DNA of 64,000 nt from the IMG/VR virus record IMGVR_UViG_3300011008_000028; one strand, given 5' to 3'. The notes below the pieces were generated by a model. It was not told the origin of the DNA, made no database searches, and was given only the letters and a program-made list of their open reading frames with translations. The DNA is from a virus. Lineage: Duplodnaviria > Caudoviricetes. Shown here in pieces: positions 4,275 to 63,104 of this stretch. Position 1 is the first letter of the stretch. Every line of letters starts with the position of its first letter. Position numbers and translations under genes: made by a program.

Positions 4275-4796
4275 TTACGGATGATTAGATTGCAGTGTCA
4301 TGAACTCGTTACTGATGTACCGAGCATACTGGTTGGGAGATGCCAGCTTCACCCCGAGAGTTTCATCGAACTTCGATTGTTGCCCAGGTATGAACCGGCC
4401 GAACTTAACGATGATATTCGGGATTTCCGCGAGTTGTTTTATCTCCTTCTCAACTTCTTCTTCTTTGTATCCGGTGTATATGACAATGGTATCATTCACC
4501 CTCTCCCTGAAGAGTTTGATCAAGTTGTATAACTCCTCAAACTGTTCAAAGGGTTCAAGCCCACCGAACACAATGGCGGAAGTAAACTGATTACAGAGAT
4601 AACGGGAAACGATCTGTTCATCATCAATATCGATTACTCGTGCTCCTCGCCAGAAATCATTCTGACATGTTGCAATATCGATACCGGCTTCGATACAACA
4701 TTTCCCACTGCATGAAATAGTTCCAATGAACATTGATGGAACTTTGAAGTTGATGAAGTCTTCGTCTTTGATTGTTTTGACTCTCATTTTGATCAC
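4275..4796 (-). CDS. nrdG: Anaerobic ribonucleotide reductase activating enzyme (radical SAM)
   Basis: CSGKC...CQN cluster motif, FGGLEPF, IYTGY, KFGRF, LASPNQ; overlaps nrdD stop. Confidence 0.88.
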   Translation of the reverse strand: MIKMRVKTIKDEDFINFKVPSMFIGTISCSGKCCIEAGIDIATCQNDFWRGARVIDIDDEQIVSRYLCNQFTSAIVFGGLEPFEQFEELYNLIKLFRERVNDTIVIYTGYKEEEVEKEIKQLAEIPNIIVKFGRFIPGQQSKFDETLGVKLASPNQYARYISNEFMTLQSNHP

Positions 4797-6062
4797 TCCA
4801 TTAATGTTTGCGCATATTCGAACCAGAGTCTAGAATTGAACTCCTTCTTGCGATCCATGGAGTACGATCTGGTAGGTACAAGGTAACCAACGATACGTTG
4901 ATATGTATCGAATACCGGTTCTCCACATACATCACAGTGATCTCCCAGGAACGCATGATGGTTCTTGCATTCATTTATCCGGGTGTTGTACGCAAAGTAG
5001 ATGACATCCGACAGAGCAATCTCGTTGAGGTTAACCCATGCAGCATCTGTATTCGGGAAGTTTGCTTCCAGATTGATGTGGGCAATTGCTCCACCCCCAC
5101 ACTTGGCATCGAGTATTGAGCATACTCTGAGCTTTTCCTTGAGAGTGCACTGCTGTGAAAGCGGGATCCACTGATTAGAGTATATGAATCTATCCGGGTT
5201 GTAATATCTGGATTCAGGGTATAACACATTATCCTTTTGGGCAAATATGCACGCACAGCGCTCGCCCGGGACGCTTTCAACGTTAAATGAATAATCGATC
5301 GTTAAATCTTCATATTGTGGATGAGTAGTATCGACTTGAATCCATTTCTGTTTAATCGTATTAAATGTGTCTTTTACATCGTTGAGTACTTCGAATATCT
5401 GAGATGAAAACTCTATACCTTCTTTGGTGTAGTATACATTCCCGAATTCATCCTGTTCCGTCATTCCGAGTGCTTCAATAACTTCATACATTCCAAGGAT
5501 TCCAATTGTACTGTAGCAATGATCCATTTCCACGCCGCCATCACAGAAGTTAGGAAGTAATCCTTTATCAATGTTACGTTTGATAATATGGCGTTGAACG
5601 TCCAGGACTTTGCAACATAATAGAGTTTTAGAACGTAAAATATCAAGATACTTCTTCTTGAGAAGTTCTCGATCATCTGAACCCATACATGCTTCAGTTT
5701 CATAAACAATCCTCATCAGGTTGATTGTATTAACTTTGATAGAGCCAATCGATAGAGCTGTACCGCCGATGGAGTTAATGAATGCATTCAATTTTTGGGT
5801 GTCGGACAATAAACGGCAGCAATTTGAGAGGACGCCACAGTCTGTGGACATGAAGAAGTTTGAATCATTCCATACGGTGTTATGATCGGAACACCATCTT
5901 GCAAATTCATTATCCGCAAACACATCATAGTGTTGGGTTCGTCTCATTTCGGCAATATCAGCCTCTGTCATCCATTCCCGTTCGTTGAATCCTGGTTTGG
6001 AAGCAAGTTCCTTTAATGTTTCGGGGGTTGATATTTTCTTCTTAAGAAGAGAATACGTCAAT
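4793..6062 (-). CDS. nrdD: Class III ribonucleoside-triphosphate reductase, exon 2
   Basis: SNCCRL finger loop, GSIKVNTINL, GGGAIAH, CKNH/CDVC Zn site, glycyl-radical motif QRIVGYL. Confidence 0.92.
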
Positions 6063-7101
6063 CGTTGTATTCATACAGTTCGCAGCACTGCACAGTTCTC
6101 TTATGAACTTCCCTATGTCACCATAGGATACTAGACTATATCATATCCCAGATATGATATATCTGGGATCCCAGCACTTCGCGTTTCCTCAGTCCCTTGC
6201 AGGATTTAAACTGACCTGGCATTAGCTTCCAGGGCTACTCTACTCACTTCCATATTAGATATCATCATCTAAATATGCGCTTTCGATAGTCGTTGCACTT
6301 TTCCATCGATATGGACTTAGCTCATGATTGTCTGAATAATGTGTATTGAAGTGACATTTATGACATAAAACGACTATATTGGATTCATCTATAAAATCCG
6401 GATATGTGATTAATTGAGCATAAAATGTCGTTTTGTCATGATCATATGTCGTTTTAAGAAATTCATCAAGTATTACTTTGAATGGCTTAATATGGTGGGT
6501 CTCTATATTCTCTGTAGATTTACAGTGTACACAAACGGTACCACGATTTCTGATTATGCGTTTAGAAATCGTTTTAAGCATTCCTCTGGCAAGAGATTTC
6601 TCGTTCAATGCACCCCTGTAATTTGGATTTTTAGATCCAATATATCTGCCTAATAAACTATTACTAATTCGATTTCTTAATTCGACATTGTTGATTTTTG
6701 ACTTTCGATCAGTAATTCCCATTCTATTAAGAATGATCGTAATGTTAGATCTAGTACAGCCAAGCATCAATGCGATTTCTAGATCAGTGTAGCCATAATC
6801 ATGCAATTCTTTAACTGCATTTTTGTCTACTACAGAAGTTCGAATTCCCATCTTGATTAGTTCATGCGTTACTGTACTTATACCACAACCTAATTGTTGG
6901 GCAATTTCTCTATGTAAGTAGCCCTCTTCCCTAAGACGTAGTATTTCGTCACGAATATCTTTGGTAATTTTCATATATTACACCTCCTTTCATATAGGCG
7001 TAATATATCACTAAATACACATTGTGAAAAATATTTTCAGAGTTTCCATGAATTCACTGGGTTTTCATAACGGATTACTCTGTTATGCCGCTATTTTTTC
7101 A
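6063..7101 (-). mobile_element. Group I intron (IA2-like) in nrdD, 1039 nt
   Basis: P1 CCGUU/AGCGG with U-G wobble at the 5' splice site, terminal G at 6063, P7 elements GCAACGACTA (~6287-6296) and GATATAGTCT (~6133-6142). Splicing restores TFP-V-LTYSLL in frame. Confidence 0.9.
6255..6974 (-). CDS. Intron-encoded HNH homing endonuclease with N-terminal HTH repeats
   Basis: Two HTH-like repeats (REIAQQLGCG, LEIALMLGCT), CVHC..HHIKPF...NIVVLCHKCH; ORF runs into the intron P7 element (SATTIE). Confidence 0.88.
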   Translation of the reverse strand: MKITKDIRDEILRLREEGYLHREIAQQLGCGISTVTHELIKMGIRTSVVDKNAVKELHDYGYTDLEIALMLGCTRSNITIILNRMGITDRKSKINNVELRNRISNSLLGRYIGSKNPNYRGALNEKSLARGMLKTISKRIIRNRGTVCVHCKSTENIETHHIKPFKVILDEFLKTTYDHDKTTFYAQLITYPDFIDESNIVVLCHKCHFNTHYSDNHELSPYRWKSATTIESAYLDDDI

Positions 7102-7955
7102 ACGGGGAACGTGAACATATTTTGCTTGCGAACATCGGACACAACTTCCATGAATATCTTCTGATGTTCTATTATTTCATCAACACAATCGATGACACAT
7201 GTTCCATCCGGATATATAACTCCTCCGAAAAGAGACTCTATATAAAACCTGTCAAAAATTGAAACATTGGTGAAGCTCGACTGATCTACCCGGAGGAATG
7301 GCTGGTTTAGGCGGTATATCAACTTCTGGAATGTTTGTCTCAAGTAATAGTCGGGATTACGGATATAATAATCATTAGCAACATCATTCTTCCAGAAATA
7401 GTATGTCCAGATTAAAACATTTGGGATACCGACCGCGCCTGAAGTCCTGTTACACATGAAACTGATGTACTCGATCAGGTCATCTGTGAATGTCGTCAAA
7501 TGTTTTGGGGATTCATGGTTGTAATTCTGAAGGAAGAATAAACCTTCGGTAGCCAAGCGGGTTAGATCGTATGCAAAGCAGTAACTCATCTCAGATGAAG
7601 AAAATGCATCATGCATATAGAATGATCCATTCCACTCTGCTTCCAACCATTCCCTCGCAGTTTTAAGTCCGTATATCTTCTTAATATCATGAAAGATCTT
7701 ATTGAATGCAAACATCTTATCATGAGGCTTACCTTTCTCAGATATTAAAGATCTTACATCCTTATGTGATGCATTTGCATTGGCATCAATGGTTACATCA
7801 GCGACATTCTTGTCAATGAATCCGTTGATGAAATCGGAAAAGTTTAGGTTTGATTCATGGAGACCGTTCAGATATTCAAATCCTTCACCATATCGTATCT
7901 GAAGATTGGTAAGGGTTAATTCAAAATCCCGACAGGTTTTAATCGGAATATTCAT
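7102..7955 (-). CDS. nrdD: Class III ribonucleoside-triphosphate reductase, exon 1
   Basis: YMHD..SYC, TSGAVG, LNQP, QSSFTNVS, MFTFPV; no ATP-cone evident. Confidence 0.92.
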
Positions 7956-37157: not shown

Positions 37158-37193
37158 CATATTGGTCCCGGGGAATTCCCCGGGACCAATATG
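37158..37193. terminator. Perfect 36-bp palindrome
   Basis: catattggtcccggggaattccccgggaccaatatg. Confidence 0.75.
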
Positions 37194-45690: not shown

Positions 45691-45698
45691 TATATTAT
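45691..45698 (+). promoter_or_regulatory. Phage early-type promoter motif TATATTAT (representative plus-strand copy)
   Basis: Same motif at 40956, 45691, 48429, 54861 and 59260, all intergenic and upstream of plus-strand genes. Confidence 0.7.
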
Positions 45699-45723
45699 AA
45701 ACATAAGAAAGGAGTTGAGAGCA

Positions 45724-47853
45724 ATGACATTTGAAAAGATCTTATCTGATGTATCTATGGATATTATGAGCTTACAGGATGCATATAATGAAATTCTTAA
45801 GAAAGATCATTTTAAAAAGATCAATTATTATGCCCATATCAATGATATCAGCAAAGAGCCAATGAGCGAAGGGCAGTTGCAGGAATTGGAAGCAATTGTG
45901 GATATACTTCAGATACTGTATAATTCCAGTGTCGGCAGCCCTGTTACCGATTCTGATTTTGATTCTCTACAGGAAACACTTGTTAGTATGGGCATACCAA
46001 GACTGTCTGGTAGTCTGGAGATCAATGACAATAACAAAGTCAGCGGGATGTTTACGACTCTGCGGGGTACATTGGGTAAAACTTACTATCTGTATCCTGA
46101 TGAAATCCGTACCAACAAATCCCGAGACTATCTCGATGATTGGATCAAACGTACTGAAGCTCTGTATGAGCGGAAGACTGGAAAGAAGATTGATCTGAAT
46201 AAAGTGAAATGTGTTGTTCAAAGCAAATTCGATGGGGTAAGCGTAACTCTCGAATACAGTGGAGAGAAGCCTGTGTGGATTAGCCGAGGAGATACCAAAG
46301 CCAACAGGGCATCTGATGTGAGTCATCATATGAAACAATTCAACGATGTCTTCTGCAATGATGGTCCAATTGGTATCAAGTTCGAATGTATGATGAGCGA
46401 GGAGAACTTCGAATATATCAATTCCCTAATAAGTAATCCTCAGTTACGGTATCACAATTCCAGGCAGGTTGTGACATCTACACTGAACTCAGGTGAAGCG
46501 GATTTCAAATCAGAATATCTGTATCCCGTACCATTGCGTGTTATACACCCTGGGGAAGATATGGAAGAGATTCATCCAGATATGTATGCGAAGTTCCCGA
46601 CTGTTGTATGCACATTCGGGGATCGTGATATCATCAAGAAGTTCGCAAATGAACATCGGTATGTTGAATATCGCGGGATGCATTTCCGGACAGATGGTGC
46701 CGTATTGACAATACTTGATCCTGAAATAAGACGCGTCCTTGGTCGTGAAGAGAATGTTAATAAGTTCGAAGTCGCGTATAAGTTCACCGAAGAACAGGCC
46801 ATTACCAAAGTCAAGAAGGTCGAGTTCTATGTATCCAATTTCGGGTTTGTGACTCCAGTACTTGTGGTGAATGATGTAATCCTTAAGGGTAATACAATCA
46901 ACCACATATCTCTGTCCAATAAGGAACGGTTTGATGAGCTTGATCTTCATTACGGTGATGAAGTCAAGGTACTATATGACATCATTCCGTATGTGATCAT
47001 CGATCCGATGTGCAATCGGCAGCCACATGGTCGGAAGATCGAGTTCGTCCGTTTCTGTCCAAGATGCGGTCATGAGCTGAATCTGAATACTACTCAAATC
47101 CAGTGTAAGAACCCATCCTGTCCATGTAAAGTCATCGGCAATATTCTGAACTATTGTCAGGGAGTGAGGATCCAGAATATTGGTTATTCCACCCTAGAGC
47201 AACTGTGGAATGCCGGACTTCTTAAGAATGGAATTCGTTCATTGTATAAGCTCAAGAAGAAGGCAAATGAGATTACCGATCTTGAAGGATTTGGGCAACT
47301 CAAGGCAAGGAAGATCATTTCGGAAATCGAAGCGAAACGTCGGCTTCCGGATTATATCTTCTTCGGGTCCATTGGAATACAAGGCCTGTCTACGAAATCC
47401 TTCCAGGAAATATTCAGCAAAGTACCTCTGGATGATTTCGTCAATATGATCAAGGCGAAATCGTTTGAACTACTGAGAGAACGGCTATTGATGGCAAACA
47501 CCATCGGCGCTGTGAAGACTGGTGATCTCGTGAACTGGCTCAAGGATACAAAGAACCGCACTGAACTATTCAAACTCATGGATGAGTTGTTGATCAAAGA
47601 ATCTTACTCTGCTGCAGAAGTATCCAAGAATATGATCAAGATTGTATTCTCTGGATGTAGACCATCTGAAGAGATGAGAGCAATGTTAACGAATCATGGA
47701 TATGAAGTATGCGACAATTGGCATTCTCAGGCCAGGTATCTGGTCATCCCCAGGAATGGATTCACATCCAGTAAGGTTAACAAAGCCATGAGTAAAGGCA
47801 TCCCGATAATAACTATCGGAAATATAACAAGAGATATACCAGGTCTCATATAA
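45724..47853 (+). CDS. ligA: NAD-dependent DNA ligase
   Basis: KFDG adenylation motif, SRGD, RTDGAV, AYKF, OB fold, CPRC..C....C Zn finger, HhH, BRCT-like tail. Confidence 0.93.
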   Translation: MTFEKILSDVSMDIMSLQDAYNEILKKDHFKKINYYAHINDISKEPMSEGQLQELEAIVDILQILYNSSVGSPVTDSDFDSLQETLVSMGIPRLSGSLEINDNNKVSGMFTTLRGTLGKTYYLYPDEIRTNKSRDYLDDWIKRTEALYERKTGKKIDLNKVKCVVQSKFDGVSVTLEYSGEKPVWISRGDTKANRASDVSHHMKQFNDVFCNDGPIGIKFECMMSEENFEYINSLISNPQLRYHNSRQVVTSTLNSGEADFKSEYLYPVPLRVIHPGEDMEEIHPDMYAKFPTVVCTFGDRDIIKKFANEHRYVEYRGMHFRTDGAVLTILDPEIRRVLGREENVNKFEVAYKFTEEQAITKVKKVEFYVSNFGFVTPVLVVNDVILKGNTINHISLSNKERFDELDLHYGDEVKVLYDIIPYVIIDPMCNRQPHGRKIEFVRFCPRCGHELNLNTTQIQCKNPSCPCKVIGNILNYCQGVRIQNIGYSTLEQLWNAGLLKNGIRSLYKLKKKANEITDLEGFGQLKARKIISEIEAKRRLPDYIFFGSIGIQGLSTKSFQEIFSKVPLDDFVNMIKAKSFELLRERLLMANTIGAVKTGDLVNWLKDTKNRTELFKLMDELLIKESYSAAEVSKNMIKIVFSGCRPSEEMRAMLTNHGYEVCDNWHSQARYLVIPRNGFTSSKVNKAMSKGIPIITIGNITRDIPGLI

Positions 47854-48518: not shown

Positions 48519-49523
48519 ATGAAAAAGAAGAAGCTCAAAATTCCGAAGAGCGTCTTAAATCTCAGAATGAGTCCGAAGAAGTTCGCGAAGAAGAACAATA
48601 TCAGGCTCAAAGGAAAAGGCATTTCCAAGAAGGAAAGAAAGCACAATCATAAGAGACTCATCAAGGAGTACTCTGATTTTGCTGCGACAGGTCTGAACAA
48701 GGCCGTGAAGATTCTGGCGGAGAACCCTGATGCCAAGAAAGCGGATAAGGTAAAAGAAGGTGTTGAGAATATCATCACCAATCCGGATGTCATGAAGAGG
48801 ATCGTCAAGATCTACAAGAAGAATCCGGGCACATATCCGAACATGATGTTCCTGCCGAATATGATCATGAACACTCTCGTGTACTATGCATCTGATGCAA
48901 TCTCCGATGAGGAGAAGGAAGTCGGCAAGGCTCTTGACACGGACAGCCTGATCACCTTCTGTGAAAAGATTCTGAAGAAGGAGATCAAAAGATACGAGAA
49001 GTTCGGTCTCGAAGAGGAAGTTGCTTATCAGTTAGCAACAGTAATTCCCACGACAAAGCTGTTCAGAAACCGTCAGTGGTACAAGCGTCTGATTCAGCAG
49101 ATGTACGATATCGCTGAAAAGAATCCCGTTGATATCGATGCTGTACTTAAGGCTGTATGCAAGATCGACAAGAAGAAGGGAATTTCCAAGAAGGAGTTCC
49201 TGGAAGGATTCTTCAGTGAGTTCATCCTTACCAAGGCATCGAACTCGAAGACGGCGAAGTTCACCGATACCCAGAAGGAACTGCACGAAGGTCTCATCGA
49301 ACGTACTCTGGTATATCTGGACAACCTTAAGGTCCGTAAGACAAAGGAAATCCTCAAGAGATATATCAAGAAGAGACAGACGGCGGAGTCATACAAGAAC
49401 GACACCAAGCGTGTGATCAAGTTCATTGACCATGCAAATTCGAATAGCCCGTATTCGAATATCAAATCGGCAATTAATGATCTCATTGCAGATAACTCTG
49501 CATACGAGGCATATTTATCGTAA
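48519..49523 (+). CDS. Lysine-rich hypothetical protein
   Basis: Start MKKKK after GGGAGGT; TATATTAT at 48429-48436. Confidence 0.8.
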   Translation: MKKKKLKIPKSVLNLRMSPKKFAKKNNIRLKGKGISKKERKHNHKRLIKEYSDFAATGLNKAVKILAENPDAKKADKVKEGVENIITNPDVMKRIVKIYKKNPGTYPNMMFLPNMIMNTLVYYASDAISDEEKEVGKALDTDSLITFCEKILKKEIKRYEKFGLEEEVAYQLATVIPTTKLFRNRQWYKRLIQQMYDIAEKNPVDIDAVLKAVCKIDKKKGISKKEFLEGFFSEFILTKASNSKTAKFTDTQKELHEGLIERTLVYLDNLKVRKTKEILKRYIKKRQTAESYKNDTKRVIKFIDHANSNSPYSNIKSAINDLIADNSAYEAYLS

Positions 49524-49549
49524 TAAGTAAATAGGAGGAGTATTTAGCT

Positions 49550-50077
49550 ATGGCTAAGAAGAGTAAGAAGATCGACAAGGAAACGCGTCGCATGATCGAA
49601 AGCATCTCCGATCTCGTTAAGAAGAAAGGAGATCGCTATAAGTTCAAATCCAAGAAGAAGAAGCTGATTAAGAAGGTTAAGATGAGCTGCTGCCACTGGA
49701 CTATCCGTAAAGGCAAGGAAGTTCCGACAACCATCAGAGACCCGCAGCGTGACGGATATTATAAGTGCGCAATATGCGGCGCTTCCTTCCCGGTTAAGCC
49801 TCAGACGATGGATGACGGCACCTCCGCTTATAAGGAAACCACGAAGCAGATGCTCGAACTCGTTGATCAGATGCAGTTCTATGGCGTAAAGCTCGGTGGT
49901 GATGCGGATGATACCAAGATGTTCCTGAAGCTCAAGGAGAACCTCCCTAGGTTTGCAAAGGTATCGGCCCAGATCATCAAGAGACTTAACAAGCGTGAGA
50001 CCTTCGACAAGAGACGCGAAAAGGGTGATTCGTTGTCGAGATTCGATAGCTACAGTAGCTTCCAGTACCGCGGCTAA
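49550..50077 (+). CDS. Basic Zn-ribbon protein
   Basis: CCH...CAIC; AGGAGGAG SD. Confidence 0.7.
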   Translation: MAKKSKKIDKETRRMIESISDLVKKKGDRYKFKSKKKKLIKKVKMSCCHWTIRKGKEVPTTIRDPQRDGYYKCAICGASFPVKPQTMDDGTSAYKETTKQMLELVDQMQFYGVKLGGDADDTKMFLKLKENLPRFAKVSAQIIKRLNKRETFDKRREKGDSLSRFDSYSSFQYRG

Positions 50078-50143
50078 ACAACATATATCACACCCGGGAA
50101 TCCCGGGTGTGATTAAAATTTTATACTTCTAGGAGGATTTAAG

Positions 50144-50794
50144 ATGAATATACTTGAAATGATCGAATGGAAACCATTCAACCTTGAAACTGCTCCGAAG
50201 AATCACACTCTGATACTTCGCAATGTAGCAGATCATCTGGATATTACCATGGTGATTTACAATGCCCAAACAGGAAAGTTTGCCATCATGAACGCTAACC
50301 CGATCTCTGAAGTTAGCGAGGAGATGTATGACAAGGGACTCATTCTGGTCGACCATGATAAGTTCGAAAACTCGGAGTATTTTACAGTTCAGGATCTCTC
50401 TCAGCAGGATGCGTCGATCGTCACCAGCGCTGCGTTACTGGATCTGACTGCCATGTCACCAATTTTCTACCCGAGGTTCGATCACAAGAACGCCAAAGAG
50501 TTCGTCTCAAAGAATATCATGATTCCCACTGTTCAGCCGTTTTTCTCCGTCTTTAACAGTGCAATGATGATCGAGGATATTGCGAACTCGACAATGGTTA
50601 GTAAGACGAAGGTATCTGGATCGGATATCGTGTCTTTCTATGATACCATGGATCATGCCAAGAACATGAAGATGTTTGCACTGGTATCCATGCACAGAGA
50701 GTGGATCGCTGTTCAGGATAAGGATGAACTTCTCGATGAAACATATGAGAAGATGGTTGCCAATGGTGCATTTGATGATGAGGAGGAAGAATAA
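50144..50794 (+). CDS. Hypothetical protein at head of NAD cluster
   Basis: AGGAGG SD; stop overlaps pncA start (TAATG). Confidence 0.75.
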   Translation: MNILEMIEWKPFNLETAPKNHTLILRNVADHLDITMVIYNAQTGKFAIMNANPISEVSEEMYDKGLILVDHDKFENSEYFTVQDLSQQDASIVTSAALLDLTAMSPIFYPRFDHKNAKEFVSKNIMIPTVQPFFSVFNSAMMIEDIANSTMVSKTKVSGSDIVSFYDTMDHAKNMKMFALVSMHREWIAVQDKDELLDETYEKMVANGAFDDEEEE

Positions 50795-51405
50795 TGAAAA
50801 AGAAATTACTAATTGTAATCGATATGCAGAAAGACTTTGTCGATGGAAGTCTTGGAAGTAGGCAGGCACAGGCAATCGTTCCTCGCGTACAGGAACTGAT
50901 TGATTCTGATGAGTTTGACATTACTCTCTTTACCAGAGATACTCACAATGAAGACTACTTGGACAATACTCTCGAAGGCAAGATGCTCCCAGTTAAGCAC
51001 TGCATCTATGAGACAGATGGTTGGCAGCTGGTTGTTAAACCCAAGATCGAAGAGTACAATGGTCTGTCGGCTATCATCGACAAGTACACGTTCGGCTCTA
51101 CGAATCTTGTACCAACAATCATTGAGGCAATATCCAATTTCGAGAGTACCTATAGGCTCACGATTCCGGATATCGCCAAAGAATTCATCGATACTATTAC
51201 GATTGTCGGGCTGTGTACCGACATCTGTGTTATCTCCAATGCACTTCTTCTGAGAGCCGAATTCCCTGATACAAGAATCATCTGTGATGCGTCGGCATGT
51301 GCTGGTGTTACACCTCATCGTCATGAGTGCGCTCTGGAAGTTATGAGAAGTTGTCAGATCGAAGTAATCAACGCATGCCCTGATATGCCCAATGAGAAGG
51401 AGTAA
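50794..51405 (+). CDS. pncA: Nicotinamidase (isochorismatase family)
   Basis: VIDMQKDF, RDTH, KHC, DKYTF, GLCTDICV: Asp-Lys-Cys triad plus metal ligands. Confidence 0.9.
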   Translation: MKKKLLIVIDMQKDFVDGSLGSRQAQAIVPRVQELIDSDEFDITLFTRDTHNEDYLDNTLEGKMLPVKHCIYETDGWQLVVKPKIEEYNGLSAIIDKYTFGSTNLVPTIIEAISNFESTYRLTIPDIAKEFIDTITIVGLCTDICVISNALLLRAEFPDTRIICDASACAGVTPHRHECALEVMRSCQIEVINACPDMPNEKE

Positions 51406-52644
51406 ATGATGTTTATTTTGGAGAAGATAGATCACAAGCTTCCGAGAATCATCAATAGCCTGTTGGAGACAGACATGTATAAGTTCTCCATGGGACAGGC
51501 GATATATCACCAGTTCTCGGATTACAAAACCACATGGACATTCAAATGCAGGAATCAGGATGTCCACTTTACAGAAGAGATGGTTGAGGAGATCAAGAAT
51601 CAGATTAAGCTGTATTGCGAACTGCAGTTTACCGAGGAAGAGCTCCAGTACCTGAACAACATCAAATGGATCAAAGGATCATATGTGGACTTCCTCCGGC
51701 TGTGGAGACCTCGGTTCGAAGACTTCGAAATATCATCTGATTCCGCCTGCGGACTTTCCATTGAGACCAAGGGAACTTGGCTAAATACTTCTATGTATGA
51801 GATCCCTACATTGGCGATCGTCAATGAGGTGTATTTCAAAATGCAATACGATTATCAGATGCTTCTGAAGAGCTTCCAACAGAAGCTGGACGAAAAGTGT
51901 GAATGGATTCACAAGGGAACCATCTACCCTGGCACATTCTCCGAGTTCGGTCTAAGAAGAAGACTGTCTGGAGATGCACAGGAATTGGCCGTCAAGCAGC
52001 TATCGGAAACCAGACTCTGTTCCGGCAAGTTCGTCGGTACATCCAATGTCTATCTGGCAAAGAAGTATAACCTGACTCCCGTAGGAACAATGGCTCATGA
52101 ATGGTGCATGTGTGTAGGCCAAGGCAACCATAAGCACAACCCTGCATATTCCAACTGGTATGCTCTGGATGCCTGGGTTAAAGAATATGGAGTCCTGAAT
52201 GGAATTGCATTAACAGATGCAATCACAACTGACTGCTTCCTGAAGGACTTCAGACTTACATATGCTACCCTCTTCTCAGGCGTAAGGCATGATTCTGGTG
52301 ATCCTTATGAGTGGGGCGAAAAGATGATCAAACACTACGAGTCGCTCGGAATCAATCCGAAAACAAAGACTCTGTTGTTCAGTGATTCTCTCGACTTCCA
52401 TAGAGCAGACAAGCTCTTCCGTCACTTCTGTGAATACACAAACGTTGCATTCGGCATTGGAACATATCTTTCAAATGATACCGATGTTGCCCCGCTTAAT
52501 ATCGTTATGAAGACAACGATGTGCAACGGAATGGATGTAGCCAAGATCTCGGATACCGAAGGTAAAGGAATGTGTAAGAATCCAGAGTACGTTGAGTATC
52601 TGAAGAGATGTATAGATTGGAGAATGAGTCATGAAGCCAGGTAG
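51406..52644 (+). CDS. pncB: Nicotinate phosphoribosyltransferase
   Basis: ETDMYKFSM, SEFGLRRR, GTSN, GTMAHEW, GVRHDSGDP, FSDSL, FGIGT, AKISD. Confidence 0.93.
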   Translation: MMFILEKIDHKLPRIINSLLETDMYKFSMGQAIYHQFSDYKTTWTFKCRNQDVHFTEEMVEEIKNQIKLYCELQFTEEELQYLNNIKWIKGSYVDFLRLWRPRFEDFEISSDSACGLSIETKGTWLNTSMYEIPTLAIVNEVYFKMQYDYQMLLKSFQQKLDEKCEWIHKGTIYPGTFSEFGLRRRLSGDAQELAVKQLSETRLCSGKFVGTSNVYLAKKYNLTPVGTMAHEWCMCVGQGNHKHNPAYSNWYALDAWVKEYGVLNGIALTDAITTDCFLKDFRLTYATLFSGVRHDSGDPYEWGEKMIKHYESLGINPKTKTLLFSDSLDFHRADKLFRHFCEYTNVAFGIGTYLSNDTDVAPLNIVMKTTMCNGMDVAKISDTEGKGMCKNPEYVEYLKRCIDWRMSHEAR

Positions 52645-53233
52645 AGTTATACTAATTCCTGGGACATTCAATCCACCTACAAACGCCCATATCGCAATGA
52701 GTCAGGAATTACATAAAGTATTTCCCGGAAGTAAAATTGTGTATGTTCCCTGTAATGATAACTACACAGTGGAATACAAGAAGCAACAGGGATGTATCAA
52801 GATGGAAGACCGTGTTCGGCTGTTGTATGGATGTATTAATCAGAAATATTCGTATGTGTCGATATTTGAAGCCAATGCTGATCCATACGGATACCTTATA
52901 GATACTGCCCGGTATTATCATTCCATCTATGATGATGTCGCAATCTGTCTGGGTGATGACAATCTTAAACATTTCGATACATGGAAAGATGCTGAAGCAC
53001 TGATTCAGGAGAATATGATTGTATATTTCCATAGAGCCGGCTATTGTGGCAACTTCTGTAAATTAATACAAGATCATCACTGGCAGTGTATTTCAGTTCC
53101 TGGGGTTATTCCAAACATCTCATCCACGAAAATACGTCAAGCGTATCTAGATGGGAACTGGGATCTGATAATCCAGAATGTTCCGGAAAACGTATTCTTG
53201 TATCTTCGTTACACAGATGGCCTCTTTGAGTGA
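52631..53233 (+). CDS. nadD: Nicotinate-nucleotide adenylyltransferase
   Basis: GTFNPPTNAH, LGDDNL..FDTW, ISSTKIR. Confidence 0.88.
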   Translation: MKPGRVILIPGTFNPPTNAHIAMSQELHKVFPGSKIVYVPCNDNYTVEYKKQQGCIKMEDRVRLLYGCINQKYSYVSIFEANADPYGYLIDTARYYHSIYDDVAICLGDDNLKHFDTWKDAEALIQENMIVYFHRAGYCGNFCKLIQDHHWQCISVPGVIPNISSTKIRQAYLDGNWDLIIQNVPENVFLYLRYTDGLFE

Positions 53234-53241
53234 TATGAAAA

Positions 53242-53267
53242 CAGATGGGCAGGATCCTGCCCATCTG
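53242..53267 (+). terminator. Palindromic hairpin between nadD and nadE
   Basis: cagatgggcaggatcctgcccatctg followed by agttattttt. Confidence 0.65.
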
Positions 53268-53294
53268 AGTTATTTTTATAAAGGAGAATTCAAA

Positions 53295-54128
53295 ATGGAA
53301 TATGATGTCAAAGATTATACCCGATGGATCATCGAATGGATCCAGGGCTGGTTCAATGTTAATGGCAAAGGTTGTAATGCCATAGTCGGAATATCCGGCG
53401 GTAAGGACAGCACGATTGTTGCCAAACTTTGTTGTGAAGCTCTCGGTGAAGATCGTGTCAGCGGTGTGTTAATTCCGATGGATATGGAACCTGACCCGAT
53501 TGCATATCGCGTAATCCAGTATCTTGGGATTCATTATACCACGATCATAATCGGTCAAGCATATAAGTCCATCATTGATCAGATCTATTCGTTTGGCGAT
53601 CGAGTTTATATACATAAAGATCTCGTGACTCGACAGATTAATGAGGAACCATCCGCTGCAACCAAGATCAATCTCCCGGCTAGATTGAGAATGGCTGTGT
53701 TATATGCACATGCCCAATCCAATAACGGGCGTGTTGCAAATACATGCAACTTCTCCGAAGACTATGTTGGCTACTCTACCAGATACGGTGATAGTGTTGG
53801 TGACTTCAGCCCTATCTCAAACTTCACCGTTACTGAAGTCAAAGAGATTGGCAGGTATCTTGGAATTCCGAACGAATTCATCGATAGACCTCCAGAAGAT
53901 GGTCTATGCGGGAAAACGGATGAGGACAATCTTGGGTTCACATATGATATGCTGGATAAGTATATCACCGAGGGTATCCTTCCCCCTCCCGAGATCAAGG
54001 AGAAAATCGATCGTCTTCATAAGCAGAATCTATTCAAGCTCAAACTAATGGAGTCCTGTCCGAACCCATTCGTCAAGAGAGCAGCTCTTGATGAACTAAA
54101 GGAGGAGAGCCCAGTTGACAGAGTTTAA
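53295..54128 (+). CDS. nadE: NH3-dependent NAD synthetase
   Basis: GISGGKDS, NLPARLRMAVLY, GYSTRYGD, PEDGL..KTDEDNLG; no glutaminase domain; start after AAAGGAG. Confidence 0.93.
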   Translation: MEYDVKDYTRWIIEWIQGWFNVNGKGCNAIVGISGGKDSTIVAKLCCEALGEDRVSGVLIPMDMEPDPIAYRVIQYLGIHYTTIIIGQAYKSIIDQIYSFGDRVYIHKDLVTRQINEEPSAATKINLPARLRMAVLYAHAQSNNGRVANTCNFSEDYVGYSTRYGDSVGDFSPISNFTVTEVKEIGRYLGIPNEFIDRPPEDGLCGKTDEDNLGFTYDMLDKYITEGILPPPEIKEKIDRLHKQNLFKLKLMESCPNPFVKRAALDELKEESPVDRV

Positions 54129-54726
54129 ACTTTCGCGATATGTCAAAGAGGAGTTACCAACATGGGCAGAAATGCATGAATGGTATCAGAATCAGTTCTA
54201 TGATTATATACCTCCTGCACATAAGGAACCACTTGACCCTTACTGGAAGATTCCGAAACGGCTATACACATTGGCTTCCGTATGCAACCAGCTCAACAAG
54301 ATGCTCCTTGAAGATGAATATATTATTGGACTTATTAATACACTACACGATGAGTTCGAAGATTTAGCAATCGATGACATATATTTCGCTATTCATATAG
54401 GGGCATTCCATAACGTAGATAAGAATACGATTTATACTTGGGATACGAAACCAAATCCATTCATATCAGATTCATCTACCAGACAAATGGTAAATCCTTC
54501 GCTTCACAGCAGCTTGGTTGTTATCACACATCAGTCAAAAGATTTAAAAGCAATTCTCACAGAAGAAGAAGCAAAGGCATTACATAGTCGAATAATTGAG
54601 TTCATGTTTATGGAGATTGAACGGTATTATACAGAACCGATTGGTTGGAAAGATGAAAAAGGCAATCCGTCTATCTATCGGAAGAAGCCCTTTGTTTGCC
54701 CTTCTGGATTTGATCCTGCGTTATGA
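54115..54726 (+). CDS. Hypothetical protein
   Basis: ORF track, AAGGAGG SD before TTG. Confidence 0.7.
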   Translation: MTEFKLSRYVKEELPTWAEMHEWYQNQFYDYIPPAHKEPLDPYWKIPKRLYTLASVCNQLNKMLLEDEYIIGLINTLHDEFEDLAIDDIYFAIHIGAFHNVDKNTIYTWDTKPNPFISDSSTRQMVNPSLHSSLVVITHQSKDLKAILTEEEAKALHSRIIEFMFMEIERYYTEPIGWKDEKGNPSIYRKKPFVCPSGFDPAL

Positions 54727-54930
54727 CAAAGATACCACCCCGGGATAACCCGGGGTGGCTCCGTTGTTACCATCATGATATATGATACATATGGAAATCT
54801 TGATCGTTATGACGATAACGATACATGATATGACTTATAAACATCATCATTTTTCAATGATATATTATTAATATGAGAGATTAGTAAGATCGATCTCCCA
54901 AATCCTTATTTCAGAAAGGAGGATACAGTT

Positions 54931-55068
54931 ATGGAAATATTGAACTACATATTCAATATTCTTAGTTTCATCAACTGGCTGTTTGCTAGCATCACTGTCA
55001 TAGTCGTTGCTATCTTTACAATCAAGATGGTGATTTCCGAGATACTCCATGACAAGGATTCCAAGTAA
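54931..55068 (+). CDS. 45-aa hydrophobic membrane peptide (not in ORF track)
   Basis: MEILNYIFNILSFINWLFASITVIVVAIFTIKMVISEILHDKDSK; AAAGGAGG SD; TATATTAT at 54861-54868; paralog of 438-584. Confidence 0.78.
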   Translation: MEILNYIFNILSFINWLFASITVIVVAIFTIKMVISEILHDKDSK

Positions 55069-55568
55069 GTGAATCCTCCCTCTCATAAGGAATAAGGAAC
55101 TTCTCAAAATCATTGGGGTGGACGACCTAAGCCCGCCTCTTGATTTTTGTTCATAAATCACATCATTAGGAATCTGTCTAATCATTTCAACATTTTACGA
55201 TCGAATTCTGGAATGTGCACATCTCCCCAGATTTCTTTCATTGTGTTGTATAACATTTCTGGAGTAACCCGGGTTGTCGATATTACATCCTTCCCGACTA
55301 TCTTGCCCATGACATTGGTCCTGTATACCTCGATTATGCATCCACCTTTGAATACAACATAGTATTCAGATTGAAGCAACTCTCCTGAGTTTCACAGTTA
55401 TCCAACTACCATCTGAATTGACATCCCATTGATCAGGATCAAGTCTACCCATGAGTTCGTAAACATTGTTCAATGCATCCGTGTTAATTTTCATATTGGA
55501 ATTCCTCCCGCATATTTTTTGTTATGGAACAGTAAGAACATCCCCCGGAATGATTCCGGGGGATGTGA

Positions 55569-63034: not shown

Positions 63035-63104
63035 GATAAATTCCTCCTAGATAGAATTATTTGAGACCCGGGATTATCCCGGGTCTCATTTTGGTTTAGA
63101 ATAT

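Follow-up and report, generated by a model that had tools for sequence, protein, structure and literature searches.

What would a phage gain from carrying a full set of genes for making nicotinamide adenine dinucleotide (NAD+) from nicotinamide, and where could it have obtained them? The question is raised by a 64,000-nucleotide stretch of the IMG/VR virus record IMGVR_UViG_3300011008_000028 (Duplodnaviria; Caudoviricetes), hereafter the window, in which pncA, pncB, nadD-like and nadE genes lie at 50794-54128, adjacent, co-oriented and in the order of the deamidating (Preiss-Handler) pathway. Bacteria commonly fight phages by depleting NAD+, and experiments have shown three routes by which phages rebuild it. 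The Preiss-Handler route would be chemically distinct from all three, and appears to be widespread in large gut and rumen phages. We conclude that: i) the four genes form an accessory insertion in a variable slot of a phage family, and ii) judged from its sequence, this cassette quite probably makes NAD+ from nicotinamide or nicotinate by way of nicotinate mononucleotide (NaMN) and nicotinate adenine dinucleotide (NaAD), using phosphoribosyl pyrophosphate (PRPP), ATP and ammonia from the host. With four intact genes, a defined insertion, cassette-free sister genomes and an identifiable bacterial source, it offers a clean, although not unique, test case.

Organization of the cassette

The + strand between 50144 and 54726 is filled by six close-packed open reading frames (ORFs), the first five of which were called at 50144-50794, 50794-51405, 51406-52644, 52631-53233 and 53178-54128. 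The features of the four-gene cassette (lengths in amino acids, aa) are:

50794..51405, + strand: pncA, predicted nicotinamidase, 203 aa; PF00857 at 9e-18; triad and metal ligands kept
51406..52644, + strand: pncB, predicted nicotinate phosphoribosyltransferase, 412 aa; NF003704 at 483 bits; 1yir at 3.7e-95
52631..53233, + strand: nadD-like, predicted adenylyltransferase, 200 aa; PF01467; TIGR00482 at 86.8 bits; TNAH replaces HxGH
53242-53267, + strand: nadD-nadE hairpin, 11-bp stem followed by a T-run
53295..54128, + strand (frame open from 53178): nadE, predicted ammonia-dependent NAD+ synthetase, 277 aa; TIGR00552 at 153 bits

A preliminary description of this DNA had proposed four neighbouring same-strand genes with intact catalytic motifs in pathway order, and the ORF list, the family matches and the homologue alignments all agree with it. 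The pncA gene directly abuts pncB with zero gap, pncB and the nadD-like gene overlap by 14 nt, and the long nadE frame, read from 53178, overlaps the nadD-like gene by 56 nt. Homology to NadE begins at about residue 41 of this long ORF (53178-54128), and the ATG at 53295 is preceded by a AAAGGAGA ribosome-binding site. Because of these two features, and because the hairpin and its T-run lie before this ATG, nadE most likely starts at 53295 and would encode a 277-aa protein. The gene reported in the preliminary description is present, but it probably does not start at 53178. The hairpin itself suggests a terminator-like or attenuator-like element, or a join of separately acquired genes.

Sequence features of the four predicted enzymes

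The product of 50794-51405 matches the isochorismatase family PF00857 across the whole protein (9e-18; 65 bits, with a cut-off of 27), and its closest solved relatives are nicotinamidases (1ilw, 2.2e-11, and 3pl1). Residues D10, K97 and C145 and the metal ligands D49, H51 and H69 align with 1ilw and 3pl1 and are invariant across 65 homologues; we take the former to be the Asp-Lys-Cys triad, and the latter the Asp/His/His metal site, known from the P. horikoshii and M. tuberculosis nicotinamidases. Catalytic residues were compared over 23 to 109 homologue rows, depending on the enzyme, and all those listed here were invariant or nearly so across phage and bacterial homologues.

PncB scored above the cut-offs of both NF003704 (483 bits; cut-off 379) and TIGR01514 (414 bits; cut-off 270), and its N-terminal and catalytic Pfam domains (PF17767 and PF04095) were both matched. 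The protein matches the structure 1yir at 3.7e-95, and is about half identical to the solved Pseudomonas PncB. H231 in the GTMAHEW motif, presumably the autophosphorylated histidine, is invariant in 109 rows. With the Nampt PHROG, PncB shares a likeness at the superfamily level only (1.6e-18).

The NadD-like protein belongs to PF01467 and carries the motifs GTFNPPTNAH and SSTKIR, with TNAH (Ala for Gly) where HxGH is usual. The TNAH/SSTKIR variant is common to the pncB-linked homologues, both those of virus-collection loci and those of three Lachnospiraceae metagenome-assembled genomes (MAGs), and since these pncB-adjacent homologues share the motif, the alignment argues that the variant is not a product of decay. 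A profile of the TNAH subfamily retrieved Gram-positive NadD structures first (2h29, 1.7e-29), with eukaryotic nicotinamide mononucleotide adenylyltransferases (NMNATs) at 4e-13; a eukaryote-like NMNAT identity was set aside, since the bacterial NadD structures score far better. No relative was found in a metagenome scan with the NadD-like protein as query.

NadE matches TIGR00552 at 153 bits (cut-off 63.65), and its SGGKDS motif, residues 73-78 of the long ORF, is invariant. NAD_synthase is the sole Pfam domain of this protein of 277-316 aa, which has no glutaminase (CN-hydrolase) domain, and the best solved relatives are NH3-dependent enzymes (2e18, 2.2e-30).

The cassette is an accessory insertion

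The window carries genes for RNA polymerase beta subunits, a head maturation protease, a virion protein, topoisomerase II and an SbcC-like nuclease, and we take it to be part of a jumbo phage and not a host mis-assembly. A search of public phage records gave only two short matches. Twelve relatives were found in the virus collection through the gene downstream of the cassette, and two backbone genes are needed for the comparison:

45715..47853, + strand: LigA-like NAD-dependent DNA ligase, 712 aa; TIGR00575 at 3e-59; adenylation and OB domains; KxDG with K171
54115..54726, + strand: 203-aa backbone gene (d203), with 28 homologues; downstream edge of the insertion; not an NAD gene

All 12 relatives have, in the same order and at ~30-75% identity, topoisomerase II, LigA, three unknown genes, the 203-aa gene, three minus-strand genes and SbcC. 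LigA is kept in every one of them (51-62% identity), as is the position of the 203-aa gene directly after a variable slot. This slot holds ~4 kb in the window and 99-1872 bp of unrelated small genes in the 12 relatives, which are cassette-free. Five of the relatives are complete genomes of 246-292 kb, two of them with terminal repeats; no gene for a nicotinate phosphoribosyltransferase (NAPRTase), NAD synthase, cytidylyltransferase-like or isochorismatase protein was found anywhere in these five, with search controls that were positive. Because the relatives share the backbone without the cassette, and the five complete genomes lack all four families, the cassette is an accessory insertion in a variable slot of this phage family. 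In the window the slot spans 50078-54114, between a 175-aa backbone gene and the 203-aa one, and the matching slot is found in the relatives' loci (L109-L120). Possibly it acts as a hotspot at which accessory or anti-defence genes insert.

LigA is a backbone gene and an NAD+ consumer that lies outside the cassette. The preliminary description had held that this ligase, 3 kb upstream, gives the phage a direct need for NAD+. The ligase is confirmed (KxDG, K171), but the five complete relatives retain it without NAD-synthesis genes, and hence its presence is not enough to require a phage NAD+ pathway; the benefit of the cassette would be conditional, not essential.

Probable bacterial source of pncA and pncB

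Among cellular proteins, the 80 closest to the window PncB (75-81% identity) come nearly all from Lachnospiraceae and other gut and rumen Clostridia. In a FastTree phylogeny the window PncB groups, with a Shimodaira-Hasegawa-like support of 97, with four rumen MAGs labelled Ruminiclostridium or Clostridia, to which it is 80-81% identical. The best PncA matches (52-53%) are in these same four MAGs, with pncA directly upstream of pncB. These four MAGs, 1.9-4.5 Mb in size and each with a normal RpoB, are ordinary bacterial genomes, and one of their loci that was checked (L029) lies among shikimate-pathway and glycoside hydrolase genes. The most likely origin, from these comparisons, is that pncA and pncB were captured together from a rumen-Clostridia-type bacterium, and, because of the DNA divergence, long ago. 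The chromosomal pncA-pncB operon of Clostridia (L029-L032 and others) has the same two genes in the same order and adjacency, and shows the highest identities to the window. It differs in that nadD and nadE are rarely adjacent to it: in the 80 bacterial loci nearest by PncB, a set of nearest PncB relatives only, all four genes never occur together, and one locus has pncB with a fused NadD-NadE.

The other two genes have their best matches elsewhere. That of NadD (35%) is in a Lachnospiraceae MAG, where pncB is followed by a fused NadD-NadE, whereas NadE is most similar (up to 55%) to proteins of other virus-collection loci. The hairpin-bearing nadD-nadE spacer would suit a join of separately acquired pieces. 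In the rumen Lachnospiraceae MAG locus L102, a 496-aa fusion of a TNAH-type NadD with an NH3-dependent NadE (L102:5094-6584, + strand) comes after pncB (L102:3935-5206), in a bacterial context that includes a GH9 cellulase and an M18 peptidase. This fusion links the two enzyme types functionally.

NAD+ loci elsewhere in the virus collection

The preliminary description had suggested a survey of phage genomes for the same four-gene synteny. A PncB-anchored scan of the virus collection gave 28 loci. In 15 of them the complete set of four is arranged and oriented as in the window, and in several others a contig end truncates the cluster. Five of the long records (160-279 kb; CheckV completeness 97-100% for four and 66% for the fifth) are without the RNA polymerase of this phage, and hence represent other lineages. 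Rows from the virus collection are interspersed with bacterial ones in the PncB tree, whose well-supported branches require at least four switches.

The clusters of the five long records contain homing-endonuclease-type genes and a DUF5662 gene. Such a DUF5662 gene lies between pncA and pncB in another phage lineage (L001:4787-5404, 4e-33; L012:5481-6029, 1e-30), and one relative of this phage has a weak DUF5662 match (1.5e-4) in its variable slot (L111:4829-5326). A link between DUF5662 and NAD metabolism is possible. Homing-endonuclease-type domains (AP2, LAGLIDADG) were observed in or beside NAD clusters at L001:7892-8695, L016:3691-4521 and L016:8381-9586, and the NadE of L016 has an N-terminal DUF2726 extension. 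In two virus-collection loci, L010 and L011, PncB is nearly the same as in Agathobacter genomes (L033, L035), and the pncA arrangement occurs at 37% identity in L010, L011 and L033, and at 38% in L035. L010 and L011 may be prophage-bearing chromosome pieces rather than free phages.

Comparison with known phage NAD+ systems

Two phage pathways of NAD+ reconstitution, NARP1 (Adps/Namat) and NARP2 (Nampt/Nmnat), were described in 2024 (Osterman et al., 10.1101/2024.02.11.579819), in a preprint that makes no mention of PncA, NadD or NadE (10.1101/2024.02.11.579819). NARP3, a PnuC/NadR nicotinamide-riboside route, followed (Sci Adv 2026, PMC13464706). Separately, complete salvage or Preiss-Handler pathways have been reported in 174 gut "NAD-jumbo phages" (Li et al., Microbiome 2024, PMC11662467); among them Kuafu_71 carries a pncB-nadD-nadE cluster, and NAD-dependent ligases are frequent in the group (PMC11662467). 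That paper mentions phage pncA, and states its work to be bioinformatic only (PMC11662467). The preliminary description had called the present cluster a candidate third NAD-reconstitution route. This label does not hold, since NARP3 already occupies that place (PMC13464706) and Preiss-Handler phage clusters had been described from sequence (PMC11662467).

The cassette is closest to the NAD-jumbo phage clusters, which are known from sequence: both are found in large phages of gut or rumen in which pncB, nadD and nadE lie together, often with an NAD-dependent ligase. As in that class (PMC11662467), pncB, nadD and nadE are phage-borne and clustered here. Genomes of the class are larger than 200 kb; the complete relatives of this phage measure 246-292 kb, and the exact protein of the ORF upstream of pncA is encoded on a contig of 178 kb. 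The cassette is one more instance of a class already described from sequence. It differs from Kuafu_71 in having pncA within the cluster, so that entry would be at nicotinamide and not at nicotinate. The predicted hosts of the Kuafu clade are Bacteroidota, whereas the nearest cellular relatives here are Clostridia. In contrast to the NAD-jumbo phage report, the present cassette is shown as an insertion that is missing in the phage's own relatives.

Like NARP2, the cassette would provide a phage-encoded path from nicotinamide, PRPP and ATP to NAD+, and PncB and Nampt belong to one phosphoribosyltransferase superfamily. NARP2, however, uses two enzymes and passes through the amidated mononucleotide NMN, whereas the cassette would use four and pass through nicotinate, NaMN and NaAD, with extra ATP and ammonia; and NARP2 was tested against defences, whereas the cassette is a prediction from sequence. 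NARP1 and NARP3 are likewise phage modules that rebuild NAD+ after attack by NAD+-cleaving enzymes (NADases), but NARP1 recycles ADP-ribose and NARP3 imports nicotinamide riboside, and neither has a component homologous to the cassette. Beyond the superfamily likeness of PncB and Nampt, no homology to Adps/Namat, Nampt/Nmnat or PnuC/NadR was found. In the literature search we found no paper testing a deamidating route against NADase defences.

Proposed function and alternative explanations

In the proposed pathway, PncA would convert nicotinamide to nicotinate and NH3, PncB would join nicotinate and PRPP to give NaMN, the NadD-like enzyme would use ATP to turn NaMN into NaAD, and NadE would form NAD+ from NaAD, ATP and NH3. 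The families, the motifs and the gene order agree with this series of reactions, as put forward in the preliminary description. As a net effect, the infected cell would have its NAD+ pool raised or restored, and the phage would benefit where the host NAD+ has been destroyed by an NADase defence, or where host niacin salvage has stopped after takeover. We infer the enzyme activities, the preference of the adenylyltransferase for NaMN and the benefit to the phage. It had also been suggested that ammonia freed by PncA could feed NadE; this is stoichiometrically sound, but nothing in the analysis supports channelling.

Several observations weigh against the proposed pathway. PncA scores 24 bits with the NF008623 equivalog, below its cut-off of 174, a model built on enterobacterial-type pncA; the NadD-like protein, at 86.8 bits, falls below the TIGR00482 cut-off of 112.45, and has TNAH instead of HxGH; and among the 46 other ORFs of the window no PRPP synthetase, Nudix, ADP-ribose-handling or other NAD-related family was found, so that PRPP and ATP must come from the host. 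The two low scores and the unusual motif would also fit a drift in substrate, with an isochorismatase-like protein that hydrolyses some other amide and a TNAH adenylyltransferase that makes some other dinucleotide. We regard such a drift as improbable, given that the nicotinamidase-specific metal site and catalytic triad are invariant, that bacteria carry TNAH-type NadD beside pncB and, in one case, fused to NadE, and that the subfamily profile is nearest to true NadD structures. An even more remote explanation, which had been named as one that would undo the case for a phage pathway, is that a bacterial fragment was wrongly joined to a phage contig by contamination or mis-assembly. It could be argued from the ~80% identity of PncB to bacterial PncB, but it was not borne out: at the DNA level no fetched locus is more than 73.6% identical, a value reached over pncB only, the matches of the other three proteins have at most 35-55% identity, both edges of the cassette are reading frames that overlap phage genes, its GC content resembles that of the rest of the window, and the exact flanking proteins are present on other contigs of 147-178 kb.

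If the cassette makes NAD+, two uses have to be weighed. One is general auxiliary metabolism, in which a host-type niacin salvage sustains NAD+ turnover after host shut-off, or in niacin-dependent hosts, with no defence involved. We consider this plausible, while stopping short of calling it likely: the phage has its own RNA polymerase, it encodes NAD+ consumers and many nucleotide-metabolism genes (LigA, a split NrdD, MazG and PPK1), its pncA and pncB resemble the niacin salvage genes of rumen Clostridia, and a reading of this kind has been proposed for the NAD-jumbo phages (PMC11662467). The five complete relatives, with the same ligase and backbone and without NAD-synthesis genes, fit a conditional benefit better than a core need, although an NAD limitation specific to certain hosts would be compatible with them. 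The other use is a specific counter-defence of the NARP type, in which NAD+ would be rebuilt through deamidated intermediates from the nicotinamide freed by SIR2, TIR or similar NADases. This is possible, and we advance it tentatively. NARP1, NARP2 and NARP3 show that NAD+ rebuilding defeats such defences; the cassette, like many anti-defence genes, is accessory and occupies a variable slot; the same four genes were gathered by several phage lineages; and PncA makes nicotinamide, the NADase product, the entry point. Yet the pncA-pncB pairing was inherited from the donor operon, and the presence of PncA is hence no independent evidence for the recycling of NADase products. The cost would also be considerable, with four enzymatic steps, PRPP and up to three ATP spent, and ADP-ribose not recycled. 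Of the four MAGs whose PncB is nearest, three encode TIR-domain proteins and none was found to encode SIR2_2, which says little about the host of this phage. A conditional role of either kind is favoured by the accessory status, the location in a variable slot and the repeated assembly in several phage lineages, while the host-like origin of pncA and pncB weakens the counter-defence case specifically. In its strongest form, that case would make the cassette a fourth kind of phage NAD+ reconstitution, a deamidating optional island against SIR2/TIR defences in Clostridia-type hosts, which we think rather unlikely; if true, it would place counter-defence in hosts of this type, where none such has been shown.

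The 216-aa ORF upstream of pncA

One further ORF shares the slot with the NAD genes:

50144..50794, + strand: 216-aa orphan ORF, translationally coupled to pncA; no family

The preliminary description had noted this gene as coupled upstream. The coupling is real: the ORF overlaps pncA by 1 nt (TAATG), and the codons of its acidic tail double as the pncA ribosome-binding site. The gene is no conserved companion of the pathway, however, being absent from all 28 other NAD loci of the virus collection. It had no Pfam, NCBIfam or PHROG match and no usable Atlas match, a word-based search returned just the protein itself, and an exhaustive phmmer search added one 114-aa fragment and one doubtful repeat protein. 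The exact protein is encoded on a 178-kb contig, and its AlphaFold2 model has a pLDDT (predicted local distance difference test) of 32. At the same position, genes of 156-219 aa in three relatives encode a comparable N-terminal W-x-D/P-x-N-x-E-x-P segment, and one of the three, in locus L113, also has an acidic tail. In pairwise and profile comparison the likeness to the relatives' slot genes is N-terminal (24-68 residues, E 0.012, HH probability 3.6%) and too weak to establish kinship. The 216-aa ORF is probably an occupant of the variable slot that is co-transcribed with the NAD genes, and not a part of the NAD module; the odds that it belongs to the pathway are low.

Flanking genes and signals

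The 203-aa protein of the downstream edge (54115-54726) had no match in Pfam, NCBIfam or PHROGs and nothing reliable in Atlas. Its structural model is confident (pLDDT 82) and has no fold match in the PDB. One of its 28 homologues is labelled as coming from a Roseburia sp. MAG.

Elsewhere in the window, the large subunit of the anaerobic ribonucleotide reductase (NrdD) is split on the - strand into 4793-6061 and 7083-7955. The two ORFs match profile positions 1-288 and 681-973 and are separated by ~1 kb and a further ORF. The split could reflect an intron, an intein or the absence of the middle part.

An Rfam search over 49400-55400 matched no family, NAD riboswitches included. Two palindromic hairpins bracket the unit:

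50087..50113 (core 50093-50107), unstranded: palindromic hairpin, ATCACACCCGGGAATCCCGGGTGTGAT, just after the upstream backbone gene
54734..54759 (core 54739-54754), unstranded: second CCCGGG-type palindromic hairpin, closing the unit

The first of these probably ends the preceding transcription unit, and a strong hairpin follows the homologous upstream gene, at the position matching 50087-50113, in each of the 12 relatives. Hairpins of the form CCCGGG-N(3-6)-CCCGGG occur at 703-718, 37167-37184, 50093-50107, 54739-54754 and 63067-63083, that is, five in the window with none expected by chance. All five appear to be intergenic, and they are probably the phage's own terminator or processing signal. 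In the relatives, hairpins stand at the same places with other sequences.

The octamer TATATTAT occurs 18 times in the window, against 5.2 expected (e.g. at 45691, 48429, 54861 and 59260). There is none ahead of the NAD cassette; elsewhere it often lies 20-40 nt ahead of a gene start, as for LigA and a 350-aa gene, and we consider it a candidate promoter element of the phage.

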